NCBI GenBank assembly: GCA_965231035.1 | Contig: OZ246409.1 | Location: 121,101-153,100 of the forward strand | Origin: an uncultured Muribaculaceae bacterium | Lineage (GTDB): Bacteria > Pseudomonadota > Alphaproteobacteria > Rs-D84 | Length of the DNA: 32,000 bases | Direction: 5' to 3' | In this document: positions 6,037 to 32,000 of the stretch, in pieces | Layout of the letters: the number at the start of each line of letters is the position of its first letter | Position numbering within the stretch: position 1 is the stretch's first letter | The notes under the pieces: model-generated | Databases searched by the model: none | What the model was told of the DNA's origin: nothing | What the model saw: only the letters and a program-made list of their open reading frames with translations | Made by a program: the position numbers and the translations under genes

Positions 6037-6083
6037 TTTTATGACTCCATAGCTGAAACTGTATTATATTAATAATACAATTA

Positions 6084-6269: not shown

Positions 6270-6277
6270 AAGTTTTC

Positions 6278-6427: not shown

Positions 6428-7716
6428 TATTTTCCTTTTACAGGTATTTTCAAGTTCTGTTTTGGATAAATCAGATTTGGGTTCTGGATATTGTTTGTTT
6501 CTGCGATAATGCTGAACAATATGCCTTTGCTTAAAAAGTTTCTTGAAATAATCCACAAACAATCGCCGCGACGAACTGTATAGAATGTATCATCTGCACC
6601 AGTTGCAGTCGGCATTGTAAATTTATGTTTTACTTCGGCAACTGTTTTATTCTGACCATCATGCAAACGAACAACCAAAGTATATTCTTTGCCTGGTTCT
6701 AATTTTTCAACATCTGCACCCAATCCAAAATATTTGTAATCAGATACGTGTGCAAAGCCCAAATATTTATCGTTCAATGTCAACGATACACGAAGGCGTG
6801 GCAATGCGTTTCCGGTTACAACTATGCGTCCACTGGATAAATAATCGATTTTTGATACGACCAAGTCACCGTTTTTCAACATTGGAACTTGCAATAATTT
6901 GCTGCCGTCTTTTGTTATTAACAAAGAAACTGAGTCTGCATAGCCGCGTTCAGAAACATAAATAAACACACTGTTTTCTGATTCTGTTTTTGGATCTGCA
7001 CCAACCAATTTAATTGTATAGTTGCCTGGGTTAAAGGCATGCTTTGGTGCATATGCAAATTCACCATTTTTATCTGTACGTTCTGTTGCAACAACTTTGT
7101 TATTCATAACAACAGAAACATTTTTATCTGCCAACCAACGTCCTGCAACTACGACGTTTCCTTCTTTGTCAATGCGAACAATATCAAAGCTGGGGGTAAC
7201 AGTATTAACAGCAACTGATGCTGTTTGTTTTGCAGCAGGCGCAACAGCAGTTTTAACAACACTTGTCTTGGCCGCTGGTTTAACTTCTTTCTTTACTGTT
7301 TTTACAACAGGTTCTGGAACAACAGGTGCAACCACAGTTTCTGTTTTTACTTCTTCGGTTCCAGCATCTTTCTTTACATTCATATCACTGCGAACAAATA
7401 CAACCCAAACACCGATGGCCAAAACGATAACTGCGCAAAGTATCGGAAACCAATAAGCTGATAAACCAGATGGTCTGTCTTTCTTTTCTTCTATACGTTT
7501 TAATTTACGAGCATTCTTTGCTGCAATTCTGGCATTTCTGGCAGTAGTATTTGCAGAAGAGCGTGCAAAAATATTCAATTTTTTCAAGAATCTTTTTGCA
7601 AAATCACGACGACGTGACATCCAAGAATTTTGGCGTGCAACTGCACCTTCGATCATATCATCTGTGGAAGTTTTTGTTTTACCAATGTTTTTGGTTTTAA
7701 CATTTTTTTGGGCCAT
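6427..7716 (-). CDS. LysM peptidoglycan-binding domain-containing membrane/periplasmic protein
   Basis: The C-terminal LysM motif is TFYTVRRGDCLWIISRNF...NPNLIYPKQNLKIP. There is one TM helix (YWFPILCAVIVLAIGVWVVFV) and a Pro/Val/Lys/Ala-rich linker. I set the start at the ATG at 7716, which is preceded by GGAGAATATTCA; the track uses an upstream TTG at 7767. Confidence 0.85.
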   Translation of the reverse strand: MAQKNVKTKNIGKTKTSTDDMIEGAVARQNSWMSRRRDFAKRFLKKLNIFARSSANTTARNARIAAKNARKLKRIEEKKDRPSGLSAYWFPILCAVIVLAIGVWVVFVRSDMNVKKDAGTEEVKTETVVAPVVPEPVVKTVKKEVKPAAKTSVVKTAVAPAAKQTASVAVNTVTPSFDIVRIDKEGNVVVAGRWLADKNVSVVMNNKVVATERTDKNGEFAYAPKHAFNPGNYTIKLVGADPKTESENSVFIYVSERGYADSVSLLITKDGSKLLQVPMLKNGDLVVSKIDYLSSGRIVVTGNALPRLRVSLTLNDKYLGFAHVSDYKYFGLGADVEKLEPGKEYTLVVRLHDGQNKTVAEVKHKFTMPTATGADDTFYTVRRGDCLWIISRNFLSKGILFSIIAETNNIQNPNLIYPKQNLKIPVKGK

Positions 7717-7805
7717 TGAATATTCTCCAATATTTAATCTTTTATCTCTGCGTACCCCTCTGGACAAATATTATTACAAAAAATCTTTCTTTGTCAACTT
7801 ATTTA

Positions 7806-7814
7806 TGATATAAT
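7806..7814 (+). promoter_or_regulatory. Candidate extended -10 promoter (TGaTATAAT) for the PFK gene
   Basis: The sequence is TG-n-TATAAT, 31 nt upstream of the ATG. No well-spaced -35 is present. Confidence 0.45.
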
Positions 7815-7844
7815 TTGGAAAAATAATTAAATTTGAGGAAAATT

Positions 7845-8924
7845 ATGAAAAAAATAGGGATTATGACGACTGGCGGCGATTGTTCTGGGCTGAATACGGC
7901 CATTCATCGTGTTGTTATTGGCGCACATCAACGCGGTTGGCAGGTTATTGGCATCCAAGACGGAACAGATGGTTTGACCTATGAAACCCCAAAAGTGATA
8001 AAATTTGATACAAACACATTGCCGATTGAAAATGCAAGATTATCGGGCAGCTTTCTTTGCAATGGTCACAGTGGTGCTGAAAACTTTCAAACTGCTGCAA
8101 AAACCGGCAGCCATGAATTGTTTAATAAGAAAATTAAAAACGCTTTGCGTAAACTGGAATTAGACTCTTTGATTTTGATTGGTGGAAACGGCAGTCTGTC
8201 ACTGGCACATAAGAATCGTGATTTGTATTCTGATGTTTCACTGGTCTGCATTCCAAAAACAATTGATATGGATATTCCAAAAACAGACACAACCATTGGC
8301 TTTTCAACCGCAGTGCAACAGCTGGTTAATTACTGCGATCAATTGCTGTTGACGGCCCGCAGTCATCACAGATGGTTTATTGTTCAAACAATGGGTCGCG
8401 ATTGTGGAAATTTGGCTTTGAATGCTGGTGTTGCGGTTGGTGCAGATGCAATTTTAATTCCAGAAATAAAATTCAACATCGATGAACTGGTAAATCATAT
8501 AAAAAAGCAACCCAGGGATTATGGAATTATTTTGGTATCCGAAGGCATTTCATTACGTGGACATTCTGGCAAGCCCGCTGAAATGGTTTCACGCGCATTG
8601 AACGCTGCTGGGATGGTCAACAGAACAGCATTCCCAGAACATATTCAAAGGGCAGGTGAAACAACCGCAGCCGACCGATTGATTGCTACACAAATGGCAG
8701 ATTGTGCATTGAATGCTATTGAAAACAATGAAACATTTGTTATGACTGCGATGATTGACGGAAAATGTAAAACAATTTCATTGGAAGAATTTTTTAACTC
8801 AGGTGACATTGTATGCGATCCAAATATTCCAAATATGGAAACGTCGGATGCGTATGTATCACCAGAAGACCCGCTGCTGACCATAGCAGAAAATATGGGA
8901 ATTTACATTGGGGAAGTTAAATGA
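7845..8924 (+). CDS. pfkA: 6-phosphofructokinase family protein (ATP- or PPi-dependent; atypical active-site motifs)
   Basis: It contains GIMTTGGDCSGLNTAI, IGGNGS, PKTIDMD, TIGFSTA, MGRDCGNL and HIQRAG, all colinear with E. coli PfkA motifs. I chose the start at ATG 7845, which follows the RBS GAGGA; the track uses TTG 7833. Confidence 0.85.
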   Translation: MKKIGIMTTGGDCSGLNTAIHRVVIGAHQRGWQVIGIQDGTDGLTYETPKVIKFDTNTLPIENARLSGSFLCNGHSGAENFQTAAKTGSHELFNKKIKNALRKLELDSLILIGGNGSLSLAHKNRDLYSDVSLVCIPKTIDMDIPKTDTTIGFSTAVQQLVNYCDQLLLTARSHHRWFIVQTMGRDCGNLALNAGVAVGADAILIPEIKFNIDELVNHIKKQPRDYGIILVSEGISLRGHSGKPAEMVSRALNAAGMVNRTAFPEHIQRAGETTAADRLIATQMADCALNAIENNETFVMTAMIDGKCKTISLEEFFNSGDIVCDPNIPNMETSDAYVSPEDPLLTIAENMGIYIGEVK

Positions 8925-9847
8925 CAGATGTATCAATTTTATATTATTTGCTTTATTTAGGGGCTTTTGCAACAGCAGGCGCAGAAGTTGGAAATTCTAT
9001 AAAAACTTTAAGTCATAAAGTCTCTTCTATGCGAAAAACAAAATTTATTGTTGCAAAAAAGAAAGTTAAATCTCAAAATGATATAGATAAAAACTACACT
9101 TTTGGTTCCTATCTACCAAATAAAAATAAAATATATTTGTACGCATTATATCTAAACCGTGAAATTGCAAAAGAAAATTCTGAATTAAAAAATCAAGTTG
9201 ATGCGCACAATAAACATTTAATTTTTACAAAAATACACGAAAAAAAACATGCTGAAAATTCTAAATATCTAAAAAATATTTACCACTTATCAAAACAAGA
9301 CCGTACTGTTTTAATGATGTTAAATGAAATAAGTGCATATATGTCAACTTATATTCGTATACGAACAAAATTACTAAAATATAAATCAAATAACACAAAA
9401 AAACCGACAATTAATATTAATATTCCAAAAGAAATTTATCCTTTATTAACTGCATATATTTATAATTTGAATAATAATAAAAATTTAGAAATTAATAGAA
9501 TATCATCAGGTGAAGCAACAGTGCTATTTAACATTGCAATTGCACATTTTATGAATGTATTTGATTGTGAATATAAAAAAGATATTTTAAAATTATCTAA
9601 TAATTCAATATCTCCAACATCGTATATGTTAAAGAAATCATTATATAAAAAATATTCCTTTGATGAGATTATAAACGCTTTCTTTACATTTGATATAGAA
9701 GGGCAGGAAATAAATATTTTAAAAAAATTATCTGAATCAAAACGTAATGACTATTTATCACAACTGACAACTATGGCAAAAAGTTTTGGCAAATTCGATA
9801 ATGAGAAAATTGCCATGGAAATTGCTTCAAAAGCTTTAGATTATTGA
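8921..9847 (+). CDS. Hypothetical AT-rich protein with a hydrophobic N-terminus and an HExxH motif
   Basis: The 308-aa ORF has an ATGA overlap with the PFK stop. It is very Lys/Asn/Ile/Tyr-rich. HEKKH lies at 9236-9250. I recognise no family. Confidence 0.5.
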   Translation: MTDVSILYYLLYLGAFATAGAEVGNSIKTLSHKVSSMRKTKFIVAKKKVKSQNDIDKNYTFGSYLPNKNKIYLYALYLNREIAKENSELKNQVDAHNKHLIFTKIHEKKHAENSKYLKNIYHLSKQDRTVLMMLNEISAYMSTYIRIRTKLLKYKSNNTKKPTININIPKEIYPLLTAYIYNLNNNKNLEINRISSGEATVLFNIAIAHFMNVFDCEYKKDILKLSNNSISPTSYMLKKSLYKKYSFDEIINAFFTFDIEGQEINILKKLSESKRNDYLSQLTTMAKSFGKFDNEKIAMEIASKALDY

Positions 9848-9850
9848 ATA

Positions 9851-9876
9851 AAAAATCCGGCTATTGCCGGATTTTT
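9851..9876. terminator. Bidirectional intrinsic terminator between the convergent 308-aa ORF and dnaK
   Basis: The sequence aaaaatccggc-tatt-gccggattttt has A and T runs on either side. Confidence 0.8.
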
Positions 9877-9892
9877 TATTTGATGTCTTTTG

Positions 9893-11782
9893 TTATTTCT
9901 TTTCAGAAAAATCGGCATCTGTTGTTTTATCATCCGCTGGCTTTTCATCTGTTTGTTCTGACGATTGCTGTTGCTGTGCCTTGTAAACTGCTTCGCCCAG
10001 TTTCATTGCTTTTTCGGTCAATGCATCTGTTTTGGTTTTCAAGCTTTCAGCAGTCGCATCAGATTTTGCCAATTCATCTGCCAATTCTTTTTTGGCAGAT
10101 TCAATTGCAGTTTTTTCTTCTTCACTGATTTTATCGCCATATTCTTTCAATGATTTTTCAATTCCGAAAATGGACGCTTCGGCGTTATTTTTTGCCTCGA
10201 CCAATTCGCGTTTTTTCTTATCAGCTTCGGCATTGCGTGCAGCTTCGTCCACCATCTTTTTAATATCTTCTTCGGACAGACCACCATCGGATTTGATTGA
10301 AATCATCTGTTCTTTGCCCGTACCTTTATCCTTAGCTGATACATGCACAATACCGTTCGCATCAATATCAAAAGAAACTTCGATTTGTGGCATACCACGT
10401 GGGGCAGGTGCAATACCTTCCAAATTAAATTGTCCCAACAATTTATTATCAGCCGCCATATCGCGTTCGCCTTGGAACACGCGGATTGTAACCGCATTCT
10501 GATTGTCTTCGGCAGTACTGAACACCTGGGATTTTTTGGTTGGAATTGTTGTGTTGCGATCAATCAAGCGTGTGAATACCCCACCCAATGTTTCAATACC
10601 CAAAGACAAAGGTGTTACATCCAACAACAAAACATCTTTTACATCGCCTTTTAATACACCACCTTGGATTGCAGCACCCAGTCCCACAACTTCGTCTGGA
10701 TTAACACCTTTATGTGGTTCGCGACCAAAGAATTCTTTTACTACTTCAATAACCTTTGGCATACGTGTTTGACCACCAACCAAGATTACTTCGTTAATTT
10801 TTGATTTATCCAAACCAGCGTCTTTCAAAGCTTTGCGGCAAGGTTCAATAGTTTTTTCAATCAAGTCTGCAACCAGTGATTCCAGCTTTGCACGTGTCAA
10901 AGTAGTATTAAAGTGAACCGGGCCAGATGCGTTTGCTGTCAAATAAGGCAGGTTGATATCTGTGCTGGTCTTAGACGACAATTCAATTTTTGCCTTTTCA
11001 GCAGCTTCTTTCAAACGTTGCAATGCCAATTTATCCGAAGATAAATCAATTCCCTTATCTGATTTAAATTCAGAAATCAAATGATTCAAAATTCGTGCGT
11101 CAAAATCTGAACCACCCAAAGCAGTATCACCGTTTGTTGATTTTACTTCGAATACACCATCAACGATTTCCAAAATAGAAATATCAAATGTACCACCACC
11201 CAAATCGTAAACAGCAACAACGCCATTTTTGTTTTTATCCAAACCATATGCCAATGCAGCAGCTGTTGGTTCATTAACAATACGCAAAACATTCAATCCT
11301 GCGATACGGCCAGCGTCTTTGGTTGCCTGACGTTGAGAATCATTAAAATAAGCGGGAACAGTGATAACTGCGTCTGTAACTTTTTCACCCAAATAGTTTT
11401 CTGCATCCTTTTTCAGTTTTGCTAAAATCATAGCAGAAATTTGCGAAGGTGCATATTTTTTGCCATCAATTTCAACCCAAGCGTCACCGTTGTCGCCAGG
11501 AATAATTTTATAAGGTACACGACCCGCAATTTCGCGTACAGAAGAGCTGTCGAAGCGTAAACCCATCAAACGTTTGATTTCGTAAACTGTGTTTTCAGGA
11601 TTAGTTACAGCCTGGTTTTTGGCAGTAATACCAACTAACTGTTCGTTTCCACCAGTAATTGCAACCACAGATGGTGTTGTGCGTTGACCCTCTGCATTTT
11701 CAATAATTTTCGGGTCAGAACCATCCATAAATGCCATTGCGGAATTTGTAGTTCCTAAATCAATACCCAATACTTTTGCCAT
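9893..11782 (-). CDS. dnaK: Molecular chaperone DnaK (Hsp70)
   Basis: The 629-aa ORF contains [28 protein letters not shown] and [17 protein letters not shown]. It looks like an alpha/mitochondrial-type sequence. Confidence 0.97.
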
Positions 11783-15716: not shown

Positions 15717-15749
15717 AAAAAAAGACCCAAAATTGGGTCTTTTTTTTTA
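15717..15749. terminator. Bidirectional intrinsic terminator (XRE gene on +, Cys-rich operon on -)
   Basis: The sequence aaaaaaagaccc-aaaatt-gggtcttttttttt has long A and T runs on both sides. Confidence 0.8.
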
Positions 15750-16991
15750 TTCTAAAGGATTCAAAACTTGAAGTTTTAACTTTTCTTTATCAGACTTAAC
15801 AACAGCTGTAGTTATACCCGTTGTTGTATCAATTGTTGTAGCTGTTGTCAAAGTATCTGAACCTAAGGTACATTTTTTATAATCCGATGGATTTACCAAA
15901 ATCCAACATTGCTTAGTCAAATCAGACACTGTATTTTTTGTTTTACTTTTACCATATTGTAAGTCTACTTTAGTATATGCTGATGCAGTTTTACAAGAAC
16001 TTGTAACTTTATCAAAATATTGCCCCGTTTGACACTGAACACATAACCCGTTAATCTTGCTTACACCACCTTTGATACTGACACTGCAATCTACACAAGA
16101 ATAATCATTTAATTTTGCAAAAGCTTTTGTTGCATCTGTACAGAAAAACTTAGCACATCCAGACGATTGTTCTAAAGAATGTATAGCACTGCTGTAACCA
16201 GTCTTTGCAAAACCATCACAAAACTTAGTATTCTGTGTAGCACAAATATCTTCGCTTATTGCAATACAATCTGTACTATCAGAATTAGCTTTATATCCAT
16301 TTGCGCACAAAAGCTTCTGTGTTCCAGCAACAGTTCCAACCGCAGAAACATATGAATGCGCAGAATCCCAACCGGATCTTCCACAAGTTACCTTGACAGG
16401 TCCAACAACAACTCCATGCTGTCCAAATTTTAAAATCCCAAGCAAAACATCTGATTCAGGATCATCACCAAATTGATCAAATCCAGAAACTTCACTTTCT
16501 TTTCCATTTGAACTACCACCAGACGTCTTAAGGCTTAATCCACCAAATTTTTGGCCAGCTGATATTCCATAAATCTTTGTATCACAAACAGACGGGCTGG
16601 TACTTTGTGACAAACAATTCATACCTCCATATCCAGGTTCACATATCCAGGAACACCCTACGGTGCCAGATCCATTTGGATAATAATAATTAGTCCAAGA
16701 ATGTCTTTTTCTATTAGTGTTTTCACATTGAATTTGGTACGGGCAAAAATATCCACCATGTTCAACTATCTTCTGTGCAACCATTCCAGCAATAGCCCAT
16801 TCATCATCAAAAGTACCGTGTATACCACCCATACCAAGAGATCCTGCAATCATAAAATCACCCGCAGAACCGTTAGAATCACGGCTGCTGTATCCCCACC
16901 AACTGCGCGCACCAGACAAGACATTTATTGCGTTTGCAGGTAATGCAAAAGTCAAAGATGTTAATAAAATTACAATCAGTTTGTTTTTCAT
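15747..16991 (-). CDS. Secreted cysteine-rich protein (414 aa, 20 Cys), unknown family, with an EGF-like half-signature
   Basis: I moved the start to the ATG at 16991 (MKNKLIVILLTSLTFALPANA signal peptide), because the track start overlaps the upstream gene. It contains CSWICEPGYGGMNC and CVDCSVSIKGGVSKINGLCVQCQTGQYFDKVTSSC. The C-terminal tail is Thr-rich. Confidence 0.75.
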   Translation of the reverse strand: MKNKLIVILLTSLTFALPANAINVLSGARSWWGYSSRDSNGSAGDFMIAGSLGMGGIHGTFDDEWAIAGMVAQKIVEHGGYFCPYQIQCENTNRKRHSWTNYYYPNGSGTVGCSWICEPGYGGMNCLSQSTSPSVCDTKIYGISAGQKFGGLSLKTSGGSSNGKESEVSGFDQFGDDPESDVLLGILKFGQHGVVVGPVKVTCGRSGWDSAHSYVSAVGTVAGTQKLLCANGYKANSDSTDCIAISEDICATQNTKFCDGFAKTGYSSAIHSLEQSSGCAKFFCTDATKAFAKLNDYSCVDCSVSIKGGVSKINGLCVQCQTGQYFDKVTSSCKTASAYTKVDLQYGKSKTKNTVSDLTKQCWILVNPSDYKKCTLGSDTLTTATTIDTTTGITTAVVKSDKEKLKLQVLNPLE

Positions 16992-17002
16992 TTCTTTATC
17001 TT

Positions 17003-19255
17003 TTACTGTATCACATAGCAAACGCCGTTTTCGTAATAACCATTTCCTAATAAAGTACATTTTGATTCATACCAGCTGTCAACAAATACACATTCATCTT
17101 TAGCTTGATCATATGTTGCGACAACAGCACTATCTGTATTATTTGCTAAACAACGAACCATGACATCATTTTGAACACAGCGACCCCAATCATTATTACC
17201 ATTATTACCACCATAAACATTGCTGTAGAAAGATTTTAACGGTGTTCCATTGCTGTTATCTGAATTTTGCCAGAATCCATCCAGATCTTCACATATTGTT
17301 GACATTTGATAATCCAACTGTTCAGCAATATCACTTATTATCTTGTCTCTTACTTCTCCTACAAGATTTTCATCAAATTCTTTGGTTGTTGGATCAGCAC
17401 AATAAGTGTTCGCACGGGTATTAAGAATATCTTTTAGTTCTGATTTTGTCCTGGTGCGGCAAGAATAAGGATACTTTTGATCCCCAGCAGTAGGAGTACA
17501 AACATCTTTGATATAATTTGTAAGAGAAGTTTCACAACCTTCGGCAACTTTGACATTGTCAACCGTGCCGACAAAAGTTAACAAGGCTGTTAAACCACAC
17601 TGAGTATTTTTTAATTTGCCATTGCTATCAAATTCACATTTTACATCATTAGGACCAGCATAAAGCGCAGCACACGCCGCAACCTTGTCCGCACACATTG
17701 TCCGTGCAGCATAGGCATTCAAAGCACCTGTGGCCTGTGCACTTGTGGTATCAAAGCTTGCCAATGCACCAGATTGAGTATCATAACACGCCTTCATTGT
17801 GCTAACACAACTATTCTTTACTTCCTCGATTTTCGTATCTTGGGCTTGTGCAATTTCAATCATCGCACTGCGCTTAAATTCATCCCAAACTACTGTCGCT
17901 TTGTCACTACAAGTATCTAAAGCCTTTTGTGCAAACATTTTTTTATCATCCAAGAATTTACTAAATTTCGGATTTGCAGATACAACATCACCGCTTTTTA
18001 TATTCAAATTTAAAATATTGCTTAGTTCAAACAACTGTGGTGAATATATAGGGTCCCCAGTATTAACATTTATATAACTGCCGGTATAATCCAAACATTT
18101 TTTATAATTTGCACCGCAAGCTGTATCAGCAGTAATTGTCGTTTTTACATTTGTTATACATGAATTAACATCTGCAGAATTCTTGGAACGATATTCCTCT
18201 AATCTTGCTTCACGCAAAATCTTTTCTGCTTCGTTTACTGTTTTTTGGACAGCTTGCTTCTGGGTATCTATATTTTTTTTGTAAGCATTACAGTCCTGGG
18301 TAATCAGAATACCATAAGAACTTTTTGCCATTGTTGTAACAGCGTTATTTTCACAAGAATCTTTTACCAACTGCAAACATTGTTTGTCAGCAGCCGAATA
18401 CAATTCTGCACCTTCTAAAGAGCTAAGATCTTGTGCAGATCCTGAACCGAACACAGAGCCAGAATTATTATCGCCCCAAATATTGCCAATATCAGAACTG
18501 AAATCCAAAGAAGCTGTTGACAATTTAGTTGTGGTTTTTGCCTTTTTATTACCAGATAACAAATCTCCTATTTCTGATAACACACTTGCAGCGGCACTGG
18601 TATCATTTTTTATAGCTTCTTCACCAACAGTTGCAGAATACATAGCATTAACTTCGGCTGCAGTTTTATCAATTGCATTCAAGTTATTATCTTGGAATTG
18701 CATCAACAATGTTTTTGCCTGGGTCAGGGCAGATTCAGTATCACGAAATTCGGATATCTTTGCATTACAATAACAACGACGATAAGTATCATTTGATTTT
18801 GCACAGAATTGATCCATACAGGTATTATAAGCCTCGCGACAAGAGGCATAACCACCACCAATTTTTGAAACATCGTCATAAATCGCTGTTGCACGCGAAG
18901 CTGCGGCACGTGAAACGGTTCCCGATTGTATAGAAGCGGACCTTGAATTCAAAGGAGTTACCGTAGAACGAATAGTTGCAGATCTTGAAACAATGCTGTC
19001 TGATCTATTACCAACAACTACATTTTGTCTTGCAGCAGCCCTGGTTGTCACAACACCTTGCAGAGCACCCCTGGATACAGTCGAACGTCTGACGATTTCT
19101 TTTGAATTATCGCCACGTTGGGAAACAGTTACTGAATTATTAAACCCACCTGAACGTGGATTTGGTGCTTGGGTTGCAAAAGAGCCGCCATTAAAGCAGG
19201 TTACAAAAGTAGCAAATGTAAGATATCCTACAAAATTAGACAGTTTTATTTTCAA
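17003..19255 (-). CDS. Secreted cysteine-rich protein (750 aa, 28 Cys in the mature chain), unknown family
   Basis: It has a TTG start (19255-19253) after AGGAAAGAG, and there is no in-frame ATG nearby. The signal peptide is KIKLSNFVGYLTFATFVTCFNGGSFA. An Arg/Ser/Thr/Val-rich segment of about 95 aa follows, then Cys-rich helical-looking regions (CREAYNTCMDQFC...RRCYC). Confidence 0.75.
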   Translation of the reverse strand: MKIKLSNFVGYLTFATFVTCFNGGSFATQAPNPRSGGFNNSVTVSQRGDNSKEIVRRSTVSRGALQGVVTTRAAARQNVVVGNRSDSIVSRSATIRSTVTPLNSRSASIQSGTVSRAAASRATAIYDDVSKIGGGYASCREAYNTCMDQFCAKSNDTYRRCYCNAKISEFRDTESALTQAKTLLMQFQDNNLNAIDKTAAEVNAMYSATVGEEAIKNDTSAAASVLSEIGDLLSGNKKAKTTTKLSTASLDFSSDIGNIWGDNNSGSVFGSGSAQDLSSLEGAELYSAADKQCLQLVKDSCENNAVTTMAKSSYGILITQDCNAYKKNIDTQKQAVQKTVNEAEKILREARLEEYRSKNSADVNSCITNVKTTITADTACGANYKKCLDYTGSYINVNTGDPIYSPQLFELSNILNLNIKSGDVVSANPKFSKFLDDKKMFAQKALDTCSDKATVVWDEFKRSAMIEIAQAQDTKIEEVKNSCVSTMKACYDTQSGALASFDTTSAQATGALNAYAARTMCADKVAACAALYAGPNDVKCEFDSNGKLKNTQCGLTALLTFVGTVDNVKVAEGCETSLTNYIKDVCTPTAGDQKYPYSCRTRTKSELKDILNTRANTYCADPTTKEFDENLVGEVRDKIISDIAEQLDYQMSTICEDLDGFWQNSDNSNGTPLKSFYSNVYGGNNGNNDWGRCVQNDVMVRCLANNTDSAVVATYDQAKDECVFVDSWYESKCTLLGNGYYENGVCYVIQ

Positions 19256-19314: not shown

Positions 19315-19896
19315 TTACTCGATACAACAATTTACAGCATTTTTAACCCATTCGCCCAAACGCTTTACCGTAGATTTATGTTCTGTGCCAACTGATTTTT
19401 CAGATTTATCTGATTTTTCTTGGTTGTTCAAAGCAACTCCACAAACCTCTGGTTCTATTTTTTTAACACCTGCAACATTTATCAAATCCATGTTTATTCC
19501 CCAAAACAGAGAATACAAATCGTATGCTTTATTAAACAATTCATAAGCATCTTCTTTTTTACCAGCTGCATTTGCTTTGGTTCCAACTTCCATCAATCTC
19601 ATAGATGCGGCCAAAAGGTGTTTGGAAATACACCAAACTTCACCAGTTTCCGCTGTTGATTTTTTAACAATGCGTTCCATCAATTCCTTACGCATATCAC
19701 GAACAGTGTTAATCAAATCGTAAAATCCAGTTTTTCCTGTCTTTCCACCACTGAAAAAGAAATGTTCTTCCAACGAAATCAAATTCATTAACGCAATTGA
19801 TAAATCCTGATCAGAAGATAAATCCAGCGGATTCGCTTTTTTGGCGGTATCCATTTTTTTAATCATTTCTTCCATTGATAATTTTTTTTCTGTCAT
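19315..19896 (-). CDS. Hypothetical cytoplasmic-looking protein (193 aa) ending in CCIE
   Basis: The ORF has no signal peptide. The segments DLSIALMNLISLEEHFFF and EVWCISKHLLAASMRLMEVG look conserved, but I cannot name a family. It sits 15 nt downstream of the CXXC membrane protein gene. Confidence 0.6.
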   Translation of the reverse strand: MTEKKLSMEEMIKKMDTAKKANPLDLSSDQDLSIALMNLISLEEHFFFSGGKTGKTGFYDLINTVRDMRKELMERIVKKSTAETGEVWCISKHLLAASMRLMEVGTKANAAGKKEDAYELFNKAYDLYSLFWGINMDLINVAGVKKIEPEVCGVALNNQEKSDKSEKSVGTEHKSTVKRLGEWVKNAVNCCIE

Positions 19897-19911
19897 AATA
19901 TCTTCCTTTGA

Positions 19912-20412
19912 TTACAAATAAATTATTGCTGAGAATATCGCAGTTGCGACCAACAAAAACGACAATGGCACAATAACTTTTTGAAATGCAAATTTTGCAT
20001 GACCATCATTGTTTTTCTTTATTTTAGCATACCAGCGAGCCCCAAAATAAAAAGCAACAGTGCCAACAATTGTTCCCAACATAAACTTATCCATACCCCA
20101 CAATCTGTTTGCTCCAAATTTAATACCTGGCATCAAGTAAACCCCCGCCAGTAAAACATAATAAAAAACAAAAGGAACAATGATTTGCCACAACACGCTG
20201 TTTACACCACGTTTTTTTAACCATCCTGCGGTCCAAAAGAATACAGAAAGCATCAAACCACCCGCCCAAATTCCAGTGATTACATCATCAACACCAATCA
20301 GTCTGGCACCTTCCAATCCTGCACCAACTGCAACTGTGCAAACTGGGCAAACCGCATATGCCGCAGGTATAAATAACAAAGCACAAACAATAAATAACAA
20401 ATATTTTCTCAT
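19912..20412 (-). CDS. Polytopic membrane protein with an N-terminal CPVC (CXXC) motif
   Basis: The 166-aa ORF has a signal-like N-terminus, MRKYLLFIVCALLFIPAAYA, followed immediately by VCPVCTVAVGAG (motif at 20338-20349). About four further hydrophobic helices follow. Confidence 0.65.
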   Translation of the reverse strand: MRKYLLFIVCALLFIPAAYAVCPVCTVAVGAGLEGARLIGVDDVITGIWAGGLMLSVFFWTAGWLKKRGVNSVLWQIIVPFVFYYVLLAGVYLMPGIKFGANRLWGMDKFMLGTIVGTVAFYFGARWYAKIKKNNDGHAKFAFQKVIVPLSFLLVATAIFSAIIYL

Positions 20413-24748: not shown

Positions 24749-27355
24749 TTATTTTAATTTTCCGCAACAATGTTTATATTTCAAACCAGAACCACAAGGG
24801 CACAAACCATTGCGACGTTCAGCAGCAGCATTCAGCTCGGTATCATGCTTAGTTTGTTCTTTTGCTGTTTCTTTGACATCTTCTGCGGTCAATTCCATTC
24901 TGCAAATATAAGAAACCGACATTATTTTGAAATTATTTATTGTATTTCTAAACAGTTCCAAAGCTTCCTTTTTATATTCATACAGTGGGTTTTTCTGTGC
25001 ATAACCACGCAATCCAATTCCAGTTTGCAAATAATCCATTTGCTGTAAATGACGTTTCCAAACTGAATCCAAAGCCCCCAACATCATTTGACGTTGTGCA
25101 GTTTGCATTATTTCAGGATTGTATCTATTATTCTGATATTCATAACGATTTTTTGCCAGCTTTAATAATGTTTCATAAGCTTTTTGTTCCGTTATTTCTT
25201 CGTCTTTTTTCCATTGTTCAATATCAGTTATATCCAAAGCAAATGTTCTTATCATTGCATCATGAATTCCATTTGTATTCCAATCCATAGGATGAGTTTT
25301 TTCTGGAATATTATTTTCGCAAATCATTTCGATTACATCTGCTATAATTTCTGAAACCAAAGGATTCAAATCTTTGGATGTCATTAATTCATCACGTTGT
25401 TTATAAACAACATTACGTTGTTCATTCATAACGTCATCGTACTTTAATAATTCTTTACGTGATTCAAAATAACGTGCTTCGACGCGTTTCTGTGCCTTTT
25501 CCAAAGCCTTGGTAATCCAAGGATGCATAATTGCTTCACCAGATTTTAATCCCAAACTGGTCAGCATTCCATCCAAACGTGAGGCACCAAAAATGCGCAT
25601 TAAATCATCATCCAGTGAAAGGAAGAATTTGGAATCTCCTGGATCACCTTGGCGTCCAGAACGACCACGCAGTTGGTTATCAATACGTCTGGATTCATGG
25701 CGTTCTGTTCCAATTACATACAAACCACCTGCATCCAAAACCAATTTTTTATTTTTTTCTACTTGGTCATAAATTTCTTTCTTTTTGTGTTCAAAATCTG
25801 GCGCTGTGGAATCTAATTTTTCAATCAGTTCTTCGGCATTACCACCCAGTTTAATATCAGTTCCACGACCCGCCATATTTGTTGCAATTGTAACAGCACC
25901 AGGTGCACCAGCTTGGGAAACAATGTGTGCTTCGGATTCGTGATGTTTAGCATTCAAAACTGCTGGTTCAATTTCTAATTCACGACGAACAATTTTTGCC
26001 AGTTCTTCAGATTTTTCAATAGATACGGTTCCAACCAACACAGGCTGTTTTCTGTCCATGCATTCTTTGATTTGCTTTACGATTGCTAAATATTTTTCGT
26101 TTTTGTTGCGGTAAATTTCATCCTGGTGATCAATTCTGACTACTTTACGATTTGTTGGAATTGATACAACGCGCAATTTGTAAATTTCTTCGAATTCCGC
26201 AGCTTCGGTCATAGCAGTTCCGGTCATACCCGCCAATTTAGGATACAAACGGAACAGGTTCTGATACGAAATGCTGGAAACAGTTTGATTTTCCGGCTGA
26301 ACACGGACATGTTCTTTGGCTTCGATTGCCTGGTGTAATCCTTTACCAAATCTGCGACCAGTCATAACACGACCTGTGAATTCATCAACAATTAAAATTT
26401 CACCATCGCGAACAACATAGTTTACATTTTTATAATATAAATGATGTGCCAATAACGATTGTTGAATATGCATAACCAAAGCAGCATTTTCAGAAGCATA
26501 TAAATTATCACCAACTAACAATCCGCCTTCTTTTAACATATGTGTGATTGTATCAACGCCAGATTCAGTCAAAGTTACATAACGGTCTTTTTCATCTTTT
26601 TTATAATCATTATCTGAAAGTTTTGCAACAACTGCATCTACTTTTTCATAAAGCTCGCTGGTATCTTCAGCAGGGCCAGAAATAATAAGTGGTGTGCGGG
26701 CTTCGTCAATCAAGATACTATCAACTTCGTCAACAATACCAAAGAACAGTGTGCGTAAAACCTGTTGTTCTTTACCAAATTTCATATTATCTCGCAGATA
26801 GTCAAATCCCAGTTCAGAATTTGTAACATATGTAATATCACAAGCATAAGCATCTCGGCGTTCATCATCAGACATATCGTGTTGAATAATTCCAACAGAA
26901 AGTCCCAAGAATTTATAAACTTTTCCCATCCATTCTGCGTCACGTGAAGCCAAATAATCATTCACAGTAATCAAATGTGCACCTTTGCCATGCAAAGCCT
27001 TTAAGTACAAAGCCAGCGTTGCAACCAATGTTTTACCTTCACCGGTTTTCATTTCTGCGATTTGACCACTGTTCAAAACCATACCACCGATCAACTGAAC
27101 ATCAAAATCACGCATCCCCAGCGAGCGAATTGAAGCCTCGCGGGCAACAGCAAAAACATCTGGCAAAATTTCTTTTTCCTTTTCACCATTTGCCAAGCGT
27201 TCTTTGAAAATTCTTGTCTGGTCACGCAATTCTTCATCCGACATTGCATGATATTTAGGTTCCAAATCATTTATCAAAGATACTGTTTTATCGTAAGATT
27301 TTACAATTCTATCATTGGCGGATCCCATAATTTTCCGCAAAATAACTTTCAACAT
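24749..27355 (-). CDS. secA: Preprotein translocase ATPase SecA
   Basis: The 868-aa ORF contains MKTGEGKTLVATL, VDEVDSILIDEARTPLIISG, TNMAGRGTDI and the C-terminal zinc motif CPCGSGLKYKHCCG. Confidence 0.97.
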   Translation of the reverse strand: MLKVILRKIMGSANDRIVKSYDKTVSLINDLEPKYHAMSDEELRDQTRIFKERLANGEKEKEILPDVFAVAREASIRSLGMRDFDVQLIGGMVLNSGQIAEMKTGEGKTLVATLALYLKALHGKGAHLITVNDYLASRDAEWMGKVYKFLGLSVGIIQHDMSDDERRDAYACDITYVTNSELGFDYLRDNMKFGKEQQVLRTLFFGIVDEVDSILIDEARTPLIISGPAEDTSELYEKVDAVVAKLSDNDYKKDEKDRYVTLTESGVDTITHMLKEGGLLVGDNLYASENAALVMHIQQSLLAHHLYYKNVNYVVRDGEILIVDEFTGRVMTGRRFGKGLHQAIEAKEHVRVQPENQTVSSISYQNLFRLYPKLAGMTGTAMTEAAEFEEIYKLRVVSIPTNRKVVRIDHQDEIYRNKNEKYLAIVKQIKECMDRKQPVLVGTVSIEKSEELAKIVRRELEIEPAVLNAKHHESEAHIVSQAGAPGAVTIATNMAGRGTDIKLGGNAEELIEKLDSTAPDFEHKKKEIYDQVEKNKKLVLDAGGLYVIGTERHESRRIDNQLRGRSGRQGDPGDSKFFLSLDDDLMRIFGASRLDGMLTSLGLKSGEAIMHPWITKALEKAQKRVEARYFESRKELLKYDDVMNEQRNVVYKQRDELMTSKDLNPLVSEIIADVIEMICENNIPEKTHPMDWNTNGIHDAMIRTFALDITDIEQWKKDEEITEQKAYETLLKLAKNRYEYQNNRYNPEIMQTAQRQMMLGALDSVWKRHLQQMDYLQTGIGLRGYAQKNPLYEYKKEALELFRNTINNFKIMSVSYICRMELTAEDVKETAKEQTKHDTELNAAAERRNGLCPCGSGLKYKHCCGKLK

Positions 27356-27495: not shown

Positions 27496-27714
27496 ATGAA
27501 GGATACTATTAAAAAACTTTGTGCAAATGACATATCCAGCGAGGTTTTTGTTATTTCGCCAACCCAGATTGAATATATTGCCCAGATTTTTGGCGATTCT
27601 GTTGCTGATGCTATGAATATGAGAACCTTTTCTCAAAAAATACGGCAAATCGCAGAACAATCTTTGCGTAAAGCTTTAACATCTGCAAAAAAACAAGGAA
27701 GTTTTAAAAAATAA
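27496..27714 (+). CDS. Small hypothetical protein (72 aa)
   Basis: The ORF is divergent from secA and is followed directly by a hairpin terminator. I recognise no motif. Confidence 0.45.
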   Translation: MKDTIKKLCANDISSEVFVISPTQIEYIAQIFGDSVADAMNMRTFSQKIRQIAEQSLRKALTSAKKQGSFKK

Positions 27715-27732: not shown

Positions 27733-30327
27733 TTACATACTGTCATCAACTATGGAATAATTTGTACCACCATAGTTTGCTTTTAATAACCCTTTGTTAT
27801 CTGTGGTCATATTTCCGTAATAAGTTGAACCGCTTAATTGTATAAACAATGAAGGACTGGTCTTTTTAACGCTGCGAAGATAAACTTTGCTGCCACTGAC
27901 ATTAAATACTTTTCCACAATCACCGACCTCGTCTGCACCAGCACCATAACCAATTGTAGTCAGACCAGAAGTGCAGGCTGTTCTGGTACTGGAATTATTT
28001 GCAGACCAATAACCTGATCCAACTTCTGTGCATTGACCACCTGAAATATAATACCCACCAGAACAACCATTGATTGAACATAAATTAGTAACCGTATTAT
28101 TTGTATTCCACGTCGCAGTTACCCAAGAAGTATCATAAACACCATCGTTTGAACAAGCTGTACCGCATGATGTCATTCCTGAACTGGCCGTGGTTGTTCC
28201 ATTCTGACACGCAATACAAGCCGAAGCACCAGTCGCACTGTACGAACCCACTACACATTCCGTACATGCAGTTGCACCAGAAGTTGAATATGTTCCACCC
28301 AGGCATTGGCTGATTGAACCAGTGCTGCCATAATTTATTAATGCAACTGGACAATATGATCCAGCAGTGCAGTTTGTCTGGGTTGATGAATTTGCTGTTG
28401 CAATATATTGTCCAGCGGTGGTTTGTATCTGACATTGTGTATTAGCAGTTTTTCCAGCATCTGTGTTCGCAGTATAAGAACCTGGGCAGGTGGTACAACT
28501 GGATGCACCAGACCCAGAATATGTAGCACCAGTACATTGAGTTATAGATCCAGTGCTGCCATATGTAATCAATGCGGCTGGACAATAAGAGCCAGCTGTA
28601 CAAGTTGTCTGTGTTGATGAATTTGCTGTTGCTATATACTGACCAGCAGTAGTTTGTAATGCACATTGATTCTGTGTCGACAAACCGGTTCCACCATTTA
28701 CATAATTTGTGGGGCATGATGTCCTGGTGCCGGTACTTCCATAGTTTATCAACGCAACTGGGCAATAATAAGTAGCAGGGCAGGTTGTTTGTGTTGATGA
28801 ATTTGCAGCCGCAATATAAGTTCCACCAGCTGTTTGTATCTGACATTGATTTTGTGCTGTTTTACCAGCTGTCGTATTTGCAGTATAAGATCCAGGACAA
28901 GTAGTACAACTGGATGCACCTGCACCAGAATAAGTCGCACCAGTACATTGCGTTATGGATCCTATGCTGCCGTAACCAACTAATGCGGCTGGGCAATACG
29001 ACCCAGCTGTGCATGCTGTCTGAGTTGTTGCATTCGCAGTTGCAATATATTGGCCAGCTGTGGTTTGAAATTTACAATCTGACTGAACTGTTAATCCTGT
29101 TCCGCCAGATCTATAACTGGCCGGGCATAAAGTTCTGGTTCCCGTACTTCCATAGTTTATTAATGCAGCTGGGCAATAATAAGTAGCAGTGCAGGTTGTT
29201 TGGGTTGATGAATTTGCTGTTGCTATATAAGTTCCACCAGCTGTTTGTATCTGACATTGATTTTGTGCTGTTTTACCAGCTGTCGTATTTGCCGTATAAG
29301 ATCCAGGGCAAGTAGTACAACTGGATGCCCCCGTACCAGACCATGTTGCCCCAGTACACTGTGTTATTGAACCAGTGCTGCCATAATTAATATATTCTGA
29401 AACACAATAACTACCGGCCGGACATGTTGTTGCCGTGGTATCATAAGCATTGGCAACATATTCCCCATCATATGTCCACATCTGGCATTGATCTTGCGAG
29501 GAAGCCCCCATATCACCATCTGTATAACCACTTGGACAAGATATTCTTGATCCTGTGCTGCCATAATTAATCAATGCCGCAGGGCAATAATACCCATAAC
29601 TGCAACTACTTTGTGTTGAAGAATTTGCGGTTGCAATATAACTGCCAGCGGTTGTTTGCAACTTACATTGGTTTTGTGCTGATAATCCAGTTCCACCATC
29701 ATCATAATTTGTTGGACAAGTATTTCTTGTTCCAGTACTTCCATAACTGATTAAAGCAGCTGGACAATAATATCCTGATGGACAAGTTGTCATACTGGTG
29801 TCATTTGCTGTTGCTATATAATTTCCAGCCGTAGCTTGTATTTGGCATTGTGTTATTGCAGTTTTTCCAGATGTTGTATTTGCCGTGTATCCATCAGGAC
29901 AATCAGTGCAACTGGATGCACCAGAAGCAGAATAAGTTGCACCTGTACATTGTGTTCTGTTGCCAGTGCTGCCATATGTAATTAATGCAGCCGTACAATA
30001 ATAACCAGCAGTACAAGTCGTTTTTATAGTAGAATAAGCAGTTGCAATATATGTACCATCTGTAGTTTGTATTGGGCACTGATTTCGTGCGGTTAATCCA
30101 GTATCACCAGATCTATAACCTGTTGGACACAATGTGCGTCCATAATTTACTGCGGGGTTATTTCTTGTAAAGCCAGTGCAATAATAGGTTGCAGTACATG
30201 TTGTGCAAGCTGAACCATTCCAATAAGTTCCAGCTGAACATGTTACTTTGGCGGCAAAAGCATCGTTTGCAAATGTGACTGCAAACACACAAAAAAAGAC
30301 CCGCAGAAAAATTCTGAGTTTTTTCAA
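27733..30327 (-). CDS. Exported cysteine-rich modular repeat protein (864 aa) with ephrin-receptor-like / GCC2-GCC3-like Cys spacing
   Basis: It has a TTG start (30327-30325) 5 nt after AAGGGGAG. The signal peptide is KKLRIFLRVFFCVFAVTFANDAFA. Nine modules of about 60 aa follow, four of them with a 17-aa prefix, and then a 190-aa C-terminal domain. I count about 60 Cys in the mature chain. Confidence 0.85.
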   Translation of the reverse strand: MKKLRIFLRVFFCVFAVTFANDAFAAKVTCSAGTYWNGSACTTCTATYYCTGFTRNNPAVNYGRTLCPTGYRSGDTGLTARNQCPIQTTDGTYIATAYSTIKTTCTAGYYCTAALITYGSTGNRTQCTGATYSASGASSCTDCPDGYTANTTSGKTAITQCQIQATAGNYIATANDTSMTTCPSGYYCPAALISYGSTGTRNTCPTNYDDGGTGLSAQNQCKLQTTAGSYIATANSSTQSSCSYGYYCPAALINYGSTGSRISCPSGYTDGDMGASSQDQCQMWTYDGEYVANAYDTTATTCPAGSYCVSEYINYGSTGSITQCTGATWSGTGASSCTTCPGSYTANTTAGKTAQNQCQIQTAGGTYIATANSSTQTTCTATYYCPAALINYGSTGTRTLCPASYRSGGTGLTVQSDCKFQTTAGQYIATANATTQTACTAGSYCPAALVGYGSIGSITQCTGATYSGAGASSCTTCPGSYTANTTAGKTAQNQCQIQTAGGTYIAAANSSTQTTCPATYYCPVALINYGSTGTRTSCPTNYVNGGTGLSTQNQCALQTTAGQYIATANSSTQTTCTAGSYCPAALITYGSTGSITQCTGATYSGSGASSCTTCPGSYTANTDAGKTANTQCQIQTTAGQYIATANSSTQTNCTAGSYCPVALINYGSTGSISQCLGGTYSTSGATACTECVVGSYSATGASACIACQNGTTTASSGMTSCGTACSNDGVYDTSWVTATWNTNNTVTNLCSINGCSGGYYISGGQCTEVGSGYWSANNSSTRTACTSGLTTIGYGAGADEVGDCGKVFNVSGSKVYLRSVKKTSPSLFIQLSGSTYYGNMTTDNKGLLKANYGGTNYSIVDDSM
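28306..30129 (-). repeat. In-frame tandem repeat array of alternating 60-aa and 77-aa modules, including a 411-bp super-repeat
   Basis: The module boundaries were derived by hand: aa 67-126, 127-203, 204-263, 264-323, 324-400, 401-460, 461-537, 538-597 and 598-674. DNA at 28814-28881 is identical to 29225-29292. Confidence 0.9.
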
Positions 30328-30347
30328 ATATACTCCCCTTGTTAAAC

Positions 30348-30377
30348 ATTCTAGAAAAAACTATGCAAAACTCGCAA
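30348..30377 (-). promoter_or_regulatory. Candidate promoter of the 864-aa repeat-protein gene
   Basis: On the minus strand there is TTGCGA (30377-30372), an 18-nt spacer, and TAGAAT (30353-30348). It lies in the 68-bp spacer between the two paralogs. Confidence 0.5.
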
Positions 30378-30395
30378 GGTAAAAATTTTAATTTT

Positions 30396-32000
30396 TTACA
30401 TATTATCGTCATAAACTGAATATTGGGTACCTTGTGAATTAACACGTAAAGACCCCTTGGTATCAGTTGTCATATTTCCATAATAACTTGTGCCATCAAC
30501 TTTTACATTTAACGATGGTGTGGTTTTTTTATCGCTACGAAGATAAACTTTTTCATCGTTAACATGTAATAATTTTCCACAATCTCCAGATTCATCTGCG
30601 CCCAAACCATAACCAATTGTCATAGTACCAGCAGGACATGCTGTTCTGGTAATTGAATCATTTGCAGACCAATAACCAGTTCCAACATCCACACAAGATC
30701 CATCAGATAAATAATACCCACCTTGACATCCACCAACTGTACACAAACCAGTTACAGTATTATCACTGTTCCAAACGGCTGTTGACCAAGAACTTTGATA
30801 TTCGCCGCCACCAGCAGAACATGCAGCGTCACAGAAAGACAAGCCAGGCACACTGGTTGTTGTTCCATCCTGACAAGCTGAGCAATAACCAGATGCAGCT
30901 GTGCTGTATGAACCAATTGTGCAGTTTGTACAAGTTGATGCCCCTATATCTGCATAGGTTCCAGCCAAGCATTCAAACAATGGTCCAGTGCTGCCATAGC
31001 TTACAAGTGTAGAAGGACAATAGTGTCCCGCAGTGCAAGTTGTTGCCGTTGTATCATTTGCCGTGGCAATATAAGTACCTGCCGTAGTCTGCCATTTACA
31101 TCCTGTTTGTGCGGTTACGCCAGTTCCACCATCATCGTAATTGATTGGACATTCAGTTCTTGTTCCAGTGCTGCCATAATTAACCAACGAAGCAAGACAA
31201 TAATACCCAGCAGTACATTTTGATTGTGTCGTTGTGTTAGCTGTTGCTATAAATCTTCCAGCTGTCGTTTGAATCTGACATTGAGTATTTGCAGTTTTAC
31301 CCGGGTCTGTGTTTGCGGTATATCCACCAGGGCAAGATGTACAACTGCTTTGACCCGACCCAGACCACAATGTGCCTGTACATTGTATAATTGAACCGGT
31401 ACTACCATATGTGACCAAAGCAGTTGGACAATAGCTGCCAGCAATACAATCAACTTGTGTTGTAGAATATGGGGTGTCAATATATTTACCACCAGTTGTT
31501 TGCAATGCACACTGATTTTCTGAATAAAGACTCGTACCGCCAGCTGTGTAACCTGTTGGACAAGCTATCAAAGATCCTGTGTCACCGTAAGTAACCAATG
31601 TGGACGGACAATAATATCCTGATAAACATCGATTCTGAGAAGTGGAATTAGCGGTTGGAATGTAGAAACCTGAACTTGTTAAAATTTTACACTGGTTTTG
31701 TGCAGAAAGCCCCGTGCCACCATTTACATAATTTGTTGGACATGCAACCTGGGGTCCTGTGCTACTCCATCCCACCAGACCACCGGGACAATATGTTCCA
31801 GCGGCACAAATTGTTTCAGTTGTAGCATTTGATGTCGCAATATAATATCCGGCCGTTGCTTGAAATTTACATCCGCTTTTTGATGTTACGCCTGTACCAC
31901 CTTTATCATAATTAGTTGGACAAACAGTTATAGATCCGGTGCTGCCATAATTTATTGATGCAGAGTCACAATAGTATCCAGATTCACAAGTTGTTAATGT
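30396..32000 (-). CDS. Paralogous cysteine-rich modular repeat protein; N-terminal part lies beyond the window edge
   Basis: The track ORF start at 31775 is an internal GTG. My translation shows the frame stays open to position 32000 (TLTTCESGYYCDSASINYGSTGSITVCPTNYDKGGTG...). It has the same module types and the same C-terminal domain as 27733-30327. Confidence 0.85.
   Translation of the reverse strand, partial: TLTTCESGYYCDSASINYGSTGSITVCPTNYDKGGTGVTSKSGCKFQATAGYYIATSNATTETICAAGTYCPGGLVGWSSTGPQVACPTNYVNGGTGLSAQNQCKILTSSGFYIPTANSTSQNRCLSGYYCPSTLVTYGDTGSLIACPTGYTAGGTSLYSENQCALQTTGGKYIDTPYSTTQVDCIAGSYCPTALVTYGSTGSIIQCTGTLWSGSGQSSCTSCPGGYTANTDPGKTANTQCQIQTTAGRFIATANTTTQSKCTAGYYCLASLVNYGSTGTRTECPINYDDGGTGVTAQTGCKWQTTAGTYIATANDTTATTCTAGHYCPSTLVSYGSTGPLFECLAGTYADIGASTCTNCTIGSYSTAASGYCSACQDGTTTSVPGLSFCDAACSAGGGEYQSSWSTAVWNSDNTVTGLCTVGGCQGGYYLSDGSCVDVGTGYWSANDSITRTACPAGTMTIGYGLGADESGDCGKLLHVNDEKVYLRSDKKTTPSLNVKVDGTSYYGNMTTDTKGSLRVNSQGTQYSVYDDNM
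30972..32000 (-). repeat. Module array of the second paralog (at least five full modules plus one partial, one with the prefix)
   Basis: The same CP.xY...GTG...C..QTTAG.YIATAN......C.AG.YCP..L..YGSTG consensus is present. It is more diverged from the first gene than the internal repeats of that gene are from each other. Confidence 0.85.

Follow-up and report, generated by a model that had tools for sequence, protein, structure and literature searches.

Two adjacent genes at the right-hand end of the 32,000-nt stretch of DNA analyzed here (the window; positions 121,101 to 153,100 of contig OZ246409.1, GenBank assembly GCA_965231035.1) encode large, cysteine-rich repeat proteins of an uncultured alphaproteobacterium, which we call A and B. 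On balance, we consider it fairly probable that A and B are Sec-exported, rigid surface fibers or adhesins, in which a ladder of disulfides would stiffen the rod, a C-terminal domain would provide for sorting or anchoring, and a fast-evolving module array would be exposed to a partner. An earlier inspection of the same letters (the sequence-only reading) had already singled out both genes, as a candidate variable surface-protein system; it missed the part of the proteins that turned out to be the most conserved and most diagnostic, namely the C-terminal domain.

The two tandem module-array paralogs are indeed located, on one and the same strand, where they had first been noticed, albeit on the minus strand (as are all features of A and B given below). 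Gene A (27733 to 30327) is a complete coding sequence in the open reading frame (ORF) list, and its product of 864 aa, with 61 cysteines and a mature mass of ~85 kDa, is identical to NCBI protein PKJ33_02050, a "hypothetical protein" from an Alphaproteobacteria metagenome-assembled genome (MAG). From N to C terminus, A consists of a Sec-type signal peptide (residues 1 to 25; 30253 to 30327), a 37-aa cysteine cap (VTCSAGTYWNGSACTTCTATYYC...; residues 26 to 62; 30142 to 30252) delimited from the translations and repeat family D10, an array of 11 modules (residues 63 to 670; 28318 to 30141), a terminal cysteine block with Pfam, Foldseek, and PDB profile matches (residues 671 to 789; 27961 to 28317), and the core of the C-terminal domain, recognized by homolog conservation and in an AlphaFold2 model (residues 790 to 864; 27736 to 27960). 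The region that follows the modules thus comprises 194 aa with 12 cysteines.

When split at the recurrent ..YGSTG motif, the array falls apart into modules of either 60 aa with 4 cysteines or 77 aa with 6 cysteines, the longer type being a 60-aa module preceded by the prefix CTGATYSGxGASSCTxC, which supplies the two extra cysteines. The even number of cysteines per module is as originally described, and the module consensus proposed at the time agrees almost residue for residue with our alignment. The same is true of the overall composition, said to be rich in Thr, Ser, Gly, Ala, and Tyr and poor in charged residues: A contains 18% T, 12% G, 12% A, 11% S, 7.5% Y, and 7.1% C, against 6% D, E, K, and R together. 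At the DNA level, Tandem Repeats Finder reports a 411-nt unit (one 77-aa module plus one 60-aa module) in 2.6 copies with 80% identity (28328 to 29391), and a 45-nt core recurs in 27 in-register copies, spaced 180 or 231 nt apart. G+C content is 42 to 44% across most of both genes (28000 to 32000; 39% in 30001 to 31000), compared to ~37% in the rest of the window, a difference that we attribute to Gly/Ala/Thr/Cys-rich coding and do not take as evidence of foreign origin.

As for the expression of A, the complete copy was thought to have its own promoter and ribosome-binding site. The latter is clear, with GGGGAG (30333 to 30338) located 5 nt upstream of a TTG start codon. The former is less so, as the 68-nt spacer between B and A (30328 to 30395) contains a weak promoter-like site, TTGCGA-18-TAGAAT, that matches 9 of 12 consensus positions, and the 16 such sites found do not clearly exceed the 9.8 ± 3.2 expected from shuffled sequences. 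Since no terminator was found in the spacer either, A is possibly cotranscribed with B.

Only the C-terminal 534 codons and the stop codon of gene B are contained in the window (30396 to 32000). The expectation that the second gene is open to the window edge and that its array continues beyond position 32000 was correct, but B is the upstream gene, such that it is the N terminus, rather than the end, that lies outside. The full gene was found in an overlapping contig of NCBI assembly GCA_035352695.1 (Alphaproteobacteria MAG, 228 kb), at positions 2682 to 9932 of the locus that we refer to as L001, and its product of 2416 aa starts with a signal peptide of its own, contains ~20 modules and four InlB-B/Flg_new repeats, and has the same C-terminal region as A. 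In effect, B is laid out as four A-like units in series, each opened by an A-type cysteine cap and consisting of cap, modules, and terminal cysteine block, with the InlB-B/Flg_new repeats joining them (repeat family D10). The window holds part of the module array (residues 1883 to 2221; 30984 to 32000), a terminal cysteine block (residues 2222 to 2341; 30624 to 30983), and the core of the C-terminal domain (residues 2342 to 2416; 30399 to 30623), the last of which was retrieved by the domain profile, as homolog P0156 (identical to B; P numbers designate homologs), with an E value of 1.8e-28. The four Flg_new stretches (PF09479; 95 bits for full-length B, cutoff 27) are all outside the window, and Pfam gave no match to such a repeat in A.

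Because an independent ENA assembly differs at a single position in 19,932 overlapping bases and because the exact B sequence is present on eight contigs, we do not regard the module array as an assembly artifact. Further paralogs had been suspected beyond position 32000; however, no third copy was found in a further 10 kb upstream of B, which is occupied by housekeeping genes and a tolQ-tolR-tolA-like cluster. This cluster (tolQ/exbB, an acetyltransferase gene, tolR/exbD, and a tolA-like gene; L001 33 to 2235, outside the window) ends, just before B, in a strong bidirectional terminator that is rich in G+C (L001 2241 to 2256), and its presence suggests a diderm cell envelope.

Export of A and B is supported by their predicted Sec-type signal peptides. 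By inspection, both fit the rule of an n-region, an h-region, and an A-x-A site (seen as MKKLRIFLRVFFCVFAVTFANDAFA|A and MPRFARLFTFLLMVLFAGNAFA|A; predicted cleavage at AFA|A in A), as the sequence-only reading had noted for the complete copy, and the layout is kept in orthologs. No lipobox was seen upon inspection of the signal peptides of A, B, and their orthologs, and neither A nor B contains hydrophobic segments beyond the signal peptide. The idea that the proteins might be N-glycosylated was dropped, since N-x-S/T sequons are not enriched over what the composition predicts (z scores of 1.9 in A and 0.7 in B).

The last 75 aa of the proteins, with the pattern TTIGYGxGADExxDCG..YLRS.KKTTPSL..YYGNM..YSVYDDSM, represent the most conserved part of the family, and conservation reaches ~30 aa further upstream. 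This domain was found in 105 of 120 homologs, mostly at the very C terminus, and when its profile was run against 1.84 billion representative proteins, it was retrieved in 608 clusters (392 at E ≤ 1e-10), almost all from Enterousia-like MAGs. It is always present in a single, C-terminal copy, and the proteins that carry it are as long as 4949 aa. In the AlphaFold2 model, it forms six β-strands, arranged as three consecutive β-hairpins, and it has no match in Pfam or NCBIfam and no informative fold match in PDB or BFVD. Autotransporters (type V) end in a C-terminal β-barrel translocator, for which Pfam gave no match in A or B; unlike such a barrel with its aromatic end, the six strands of the β domain cover ~60 aa and the sequence ends in ...DDSM. 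An hhalign comparison of the module profile with the C-terminal profile returned a probability of 99.2%, a value that is partly circular because some of the C-terminal rows include ordinary modules; still, it hints that the first cysteine loop of the domain might be a degenerate module start. A few homologs (P0012, P0097, P0109, and a P0062-type group) extend past the domain with either a conserved 16-aa tail (ILYGERDFETNTRITQ) or a ~133-aa cysteine-containing domain.

The passengers to which this C-terminal domain is attached are diverse. They contain between 0 and 19 of the 60-aa modules, and those without any carry Flg_new, BspA-type LRR, PKD, or Ephrin_rec_like domains. In this respect, the family resembles the giant repeat adhesins of other bacteria, built from InlB B-repeats (Flg_new/List_Bact_rpt), BspA-type LRRs, or PKD domains: B has four Flg_new repeats, relatives carry LRR_5 and PKD, and signal peptide, very large size, and variable repeat number are common to both. 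Stalks of bacterial adhesins, however, are typically Ig-like, β-helical, or coiled-coil and poor in cysteine, whereas the rod of the A/B family would consist of cysteine modules, with 60 to 157 cysteines per protein. The layout, with a Sec signal, diverse adhesin-type passengers, and one conserved, all-β domain of ~75 aa at the extreme C terminus, is also reminiscent, by analogy only, of type IX secretion cargo, in which a Sec signal and diverse passengers are combined with a conserved C-terminal β-domain of ~80 aa. Unlike the hosts of that system, the host of A and B is alphaproteobacterial and not a member of the Bacteroidota; moreover, the C-terminal 105 aa did not match type IX C-terminal models (Por_Secre_tail/TIGR04183-type) in Pfam or NCBIfam, and no type IX secretion genes were seen.

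To see where the C-terminal domain occurs, we scanned one genome per GTDB species and found 136 loci, nearly all of them belonging to uncultured gut Alphaproteobacteria, to Candidatus Enterousia, or to "uncultured Rickettsiales" MAGs, complemented by MAGs from Zodletone spring. A few loci on short contigs binned to Bacteroidales look like the result of misbinning. The SecA protein encoded in the window is 81 to 87% identical to SecA of the lineages that possess the domain, and its gene (24749 to 27355, minus strand; Pfam SecA domains) is the conserved downstream neighbor of the family: in 37 of 81 related loci, the gene encoding the C-terminal domain immediately precedes secA in the same orientation, as it does here, with dnaE next in 23 of those. 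Enterousia belongs to GTDB order Rs-D84; its genomes are smaller than 1 Mb and fermentative, lack respiratory chains, and are inferred to depend on a partner (PMC12306168). We found no description of the A/B family in the literature on bacterial Ephrin_rec_like/GCC2_GCC3 domains or on Enterousia/Rs-D84. Although the domain class and giant repeat adhesins as such are already known, the literature searched describes neither the dominant module nor the C-terminal domain, nor that they are restricted to a reduced-genome gut lineage.

The cysteine-rich modules were originally likened to eukaryotic ones, and this comparison holds for part of the protein. The segment that had been singled out for its spacing (CLGGTYS...CQNG, in the terminal cysteine block) is exactly where Pfam places Ephrin_rec_like (PF07699, formerly GCC2_GCC3; gathering cutoff 23.1 bits), although the scores for A (18.5; residues 678 to 720, 28168 to 28296), for the window part of B (20.4; 30843 to 30962), and for full-length B (22.6) are just below the cutoff and concern the terminal block only. 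Ortholog P0005 (63% identical to A) does pass, with 32.1 bits at the homologous place (residues 471 to 514), as do homologs P0014 (53.5), P0063 (70.4), P0249 (59), and P0245 (29.4 bits), and the cutoffs of NCD3G and TNFR_ELAPOR1 are passed by homologs as well. In contrast, the suspected relation to TNFR_c6, Furin-like, and VSP (PF03302) was not borne out by Pfam, which gave no match at E ≤ 1 for A or B. NCBIfam yielded only noise (lasso peptide, NrdI) and no match at E ≤ 1 to the Myxococcus-type cysteine-rich repeat TIGR02232. That the proteins fall outside characterized bacterial families, as the sequence-only reading had supposed, was confirmed; the named matches are all called "hypothetical" or "InlB B-repeat-containing protein."

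Structure predictions point in the same direction. The AlphaFold2 model of a module pair (77 plus 60 aa; residues 457 to 593 of A) has a predicted local distance difference test (pLDDT) score of 95.7 and consists of β-hairpins only, and that of the C-terminal 194 aa (pLDDT 88.4) is all-β, with mostly short strands and hairpins. When compared to PDB with Foldseek, the latter model retrieved ELAPOR1 (E = 3.3e-3) and Mst1 (E = 3.7e-3), both at a probability of 1.0, followed by weaker matches (E of 0.07 or weaker) to 4-1BB and other TNFR members and to the cysteine-rich domains of EphB2, EphA2, and CaSR, with 57 columns aligned at 35% identity and a root mean square deviation (rmsd) of 2.7 in the case of CaSR. 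Similarly, a profile of the C-terminal region matched the PDB sequences of Mst1 (E = 1.6e-5) and TNFRSF11B (E = 0.033). Ephrin_rec_like/TNFR-type domains, among them those of ELAPOR1, the NCD3G of class C G protein-coupled receptors, and TNFRSF members, thus appear to share with A and B the C-x2-C-x2-G-x-Y...C spacing and, judging from the models, disulfide-pinned β-hairpins that may stack into rods. Unlike them, A and B are bacterial, have no transmembrane or kinase part, and are dominated by a module (CPxxY..GTG..C..QTTAGxYIATAN..C..GxYCP..L..YGSTG) that no model matches. Since this four-cysteine, 60-aa module is by itself unmatched by Pfam and NCBIfam models and PDB entries, the link to eukaryotic folds rests on the terminal block, the prefix of the long modules, and the homologs; a relationship has good support in the terminal block and the prefix and is only plausible in the 60-aa core.

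In BFVD, Foldseek found nothing below an E value of 0.2 for the C-terminal model. Three uncharacterized gut-phage proteins (A0A8S5NPH6, A0A8S5SL66, and A0A8S5SD73) aligned with it over ~66 to 70 columns (rmsd, 3.0 to 3.5 Å; probability, 0.93 to 1.0; E = 0.2 to 0.75), and a tblastn search of 50,697 phage records with the C-terminal 194 aa gave no match. Some homologs have cysteine modules of this type but no C-terminal domain: in P0026 and P0063, one of which is from a "Bacilli bacterium" MAG, they are attached to prepilin-type N termini (N_methyl motif), and other module-bearing homologs lacking the domain have an N-terminal membrane anchor. Their presence on such proteins, and in that MAG, leads us to view the cysteine module as a portable unit across phyla.

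A fold class shared with TNFR, Eph, and ELAPOR proteins, together with weak Pfam matches to poxvirus T4/TNFR-like N termini and the gut association of the lineage, could also mean that A and B are released in soluble form and, as decoys, capture ligands of a host or protist to modulate signaling, in the manner of poxviral TNFR homologues. We find this quite improbable: ligand-specific decoys are not expected to consist of 11 to 30 near-identical modules or to reach 4949 aa, the family extends to nonanimal anoxic habitats (the Zodletone spring MAGs and the MAG carrying A and B), and the C-terminal domain is equally found on LRR, PKD, and Flg_new passengers of the adhesin type.

Another relative is Mst1, the Chlamydomonas mastigoneme protein (PDB entries 8wa2, 8tx1, and 9b4h), which is the best profile match and shares the top of the fold matches with ELAPOR1. 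Its cysteine-rich domains are similar to those of ephrin receptors, and a disulfide ladder with a spacing of ~11 Å stiffens the filament (PMC10602792). Mst1 is a long extracellular rod in which cysteine-rich and Ig-like β domains are combined, as cysteine-rich modules and InlB-B repeats are in B. It is, however, a eukaryotic protein, heavily glycosylated, polyproline tailed, and anchored through PKD2, whereas A and B have no polyproline helix, no enrichment of sequons, and an unrelated C-terminal domain. That the best PDB relative is a filament subunit might argue for a structural component of the envelope, be it an S-layer-like coat or self-polymerizing, mastigoneme-like filaments that protect or shape the small cell. 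The conserved core-genome position, the conservation of both termini, and the Thr/Ser/Gly/Ala-rich composition would suit such a role. We nevertheless judge it unlikely, as divergence of the passenger is much too rapid for a lattice that has to assemble itself, typical adhesin domains are among the passengers of the C-terminal domain, and no polymerization interface was identified. Classical S-layer proteins, furthermore, are poor in cysteine.

The way in which the family varies is consistent with rapid evolution of an exposed part. Compared to its closest ortholog (P0002; 77% identity), A differs by a single, exact gap of 137 aa, corresponding to one long and one short module; this indel has the same length as the 411-nt tandem unit but affects different modules. 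Orthologs in the same position, upstream of secA, can be as short as 454 aa or exceed 2200 aa, with 30 to 148 cysteines, and their passengers are 22 to 61% identical, compared to 46 to 67% for the C-terminal domain. In a group of 44 clusters that corresponds to one species, hardly anything changes in the first 50 aa or in the last ~300 alignment columns, and indels form a mosaic in between.

Such mosaics, and the differences in module number between strains, are also what one might expect of programmed antigenic variation, in which a single cell line would switch or recombine its paralogs and so escape a host or predator. The sequence-only reading had pointed to a like cysteine spacing in Giardia variant-specific surface proteins (VSPs) and ciliate immobilization antigens, with which A and B do share a Cys-rich and Thr/Ser/Gly-rich, surface-type composition, CXXC-type repeats, and high diversity; in addition, A and B are in tandem, and several related genomes contain two or more loci. 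Several observations speak against it. There are just two copies, with no third within 10 kb; repeats and paralogs share only 60 to 80% DNA identity; no inverted repeats (looked for as a feature of phase variation) and no silent or near-identical cassettes were found at the locus, and no recombinase gene near A and B, including the 10-kb upstream extension; and sequences assembled independently from other samples are the same except for one base. The gene, moreover, occupies a conserved syntenic site beside secA, and, unlike Giardia VSPs, A and B have no Pfam VSP match, C-terminal transmembrane anchor, CRGKA tail, large gene family, or switching machinery. Programmed switching is therefore highly improbable, and the variation of A and B, in module number and passenger sequence, is evolutionary, between strains and species.

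Starting from the observed anatomy, signal-peptide features, fold class, domain distribution, synteny, and indel pattern, we infer disulfide formation, a surface location, a role for the C-terminal domain, and an adhesive function. In the reading that we prefer, that of a surface fiber, A and B would cross the inner membrane by the Sec route in a reduced-genome alphaproteobacterium that is a close relative of Candidatus Enterousia (order Rs-D84). Each 60- or 77-aa module might then fold into β-hairpins pinned by two or three disulfides, and modules stacked end to end could form a stiff "disulfide ladder" of the TNFR/ephrin-receptor cysteine-rich domain type, with a length that we estimate, very approximately, at tens of nanometers in A and about 100 nm in B. 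The C-terminal domain (~75 to 105 aa) would be recognized by the cell for sorting across, or anchoring on, the outer membrane, and the exposed array may attach to a partner cell or surface, as needed by metabolically dependent bacteria. In-register recombination between modules would shift their number and could so generate diversity in length and sequence among strains and species. A bolder extension, to which we assign only a small chance, is that the C-terminal domain marks an unrecognized cargo-sorting or anchoring system of Rs-D84/Enterousia and that the fibers latch onto an obligate partner, possibly the very eukaryote that donated the module type.

Several points weigh against the fiber. 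The Foldseek E values (~3e-3) and template-modeling (TM) scores (0.24 to 0.29) of the C-terminal region are weak, and a cysteine-rich, low-complexity composition can inflate profile scores. Furthermore, with the module pair, Foldseek drew the same families from PDB only at E > 1, and a profile search of PDB sequences returned a chance cutinase (E = 1.1) and nothing else. The C-terminal domain has no recognizable relative, such that its proposed role in sorting or anchoring is a guess from position and conservation, and no route for export across the outer membrane was identified. The adjacency to secA might be plain synteny in reduced genomes, and part of the length variation among metagenome-derived homologs could be due to assembly errors. 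Finally, the Enterousia lineage is reported to be anaerobic and devoid of a respiratory chain (PMC12306168), which leaves the formation of 30 to 80 disulfides per protein unexplained.

If the fiber reading is right, it is this last point that poses a biochemical puzzle, namely how such an anaerobe makes and exports rods of this kind. With ~10 kb at a single locus for A and B, and relatives of up to ~4900 aa, the family represents a large coding investment for small (<1-Mb), presumably partner-dependent genomes, which makes these proteins prime candidates for an attachment apparatus. Rs-D84/Enterousia bacteria occur widely in the guts of animals and humans, and their supposed partner has yet to be named (PMC12306168). 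In the literature, the Ephrin_rec_like domain is held to be eukaryotic in essence, and horizontal transfer is invoked for its rare occurrences in bacteria (PMC6993872); TNFR/ephrin-receptor-type cysteine ladders would instead be common building blocks in uncultured bacteria. Two unannotated families, moreover, are now available as handles for searches, namely, the 60-aa module and the C-terminal domain, the latter being a clean lineage marker.

The remainder of the window is mainly occupied by housekeeping genes (tsaD, trmD, rimM, rpsP, pfk, dnaK, rplY, gpmI, rsmH, dnaE, and secA). Several ORFs in these surroundings have no match in Pfam or NCBIfam: two of 437 and 750 aa (15747 to 19255, minus strand), followed by two of 193 and 166 aa (19315 to 20412), and a Lys/Asn/Ile-rich ORF of 308 aa (8921 to 9847, plus strand) between pfk and dnaK, which coincides with a trough in G+C content (25%, compared to ~37%). 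A last ORF, of 72 aa (27496 to 27714, plus strand), is located between A and secA. While no precomputed Pfam match or NCBIfam match was found for it, homologous ORFs are similarly placed in eight related loci, right behind the gene with the C-terminal domain and on the opposite strand, and we therefore consider it probably a real small gene.

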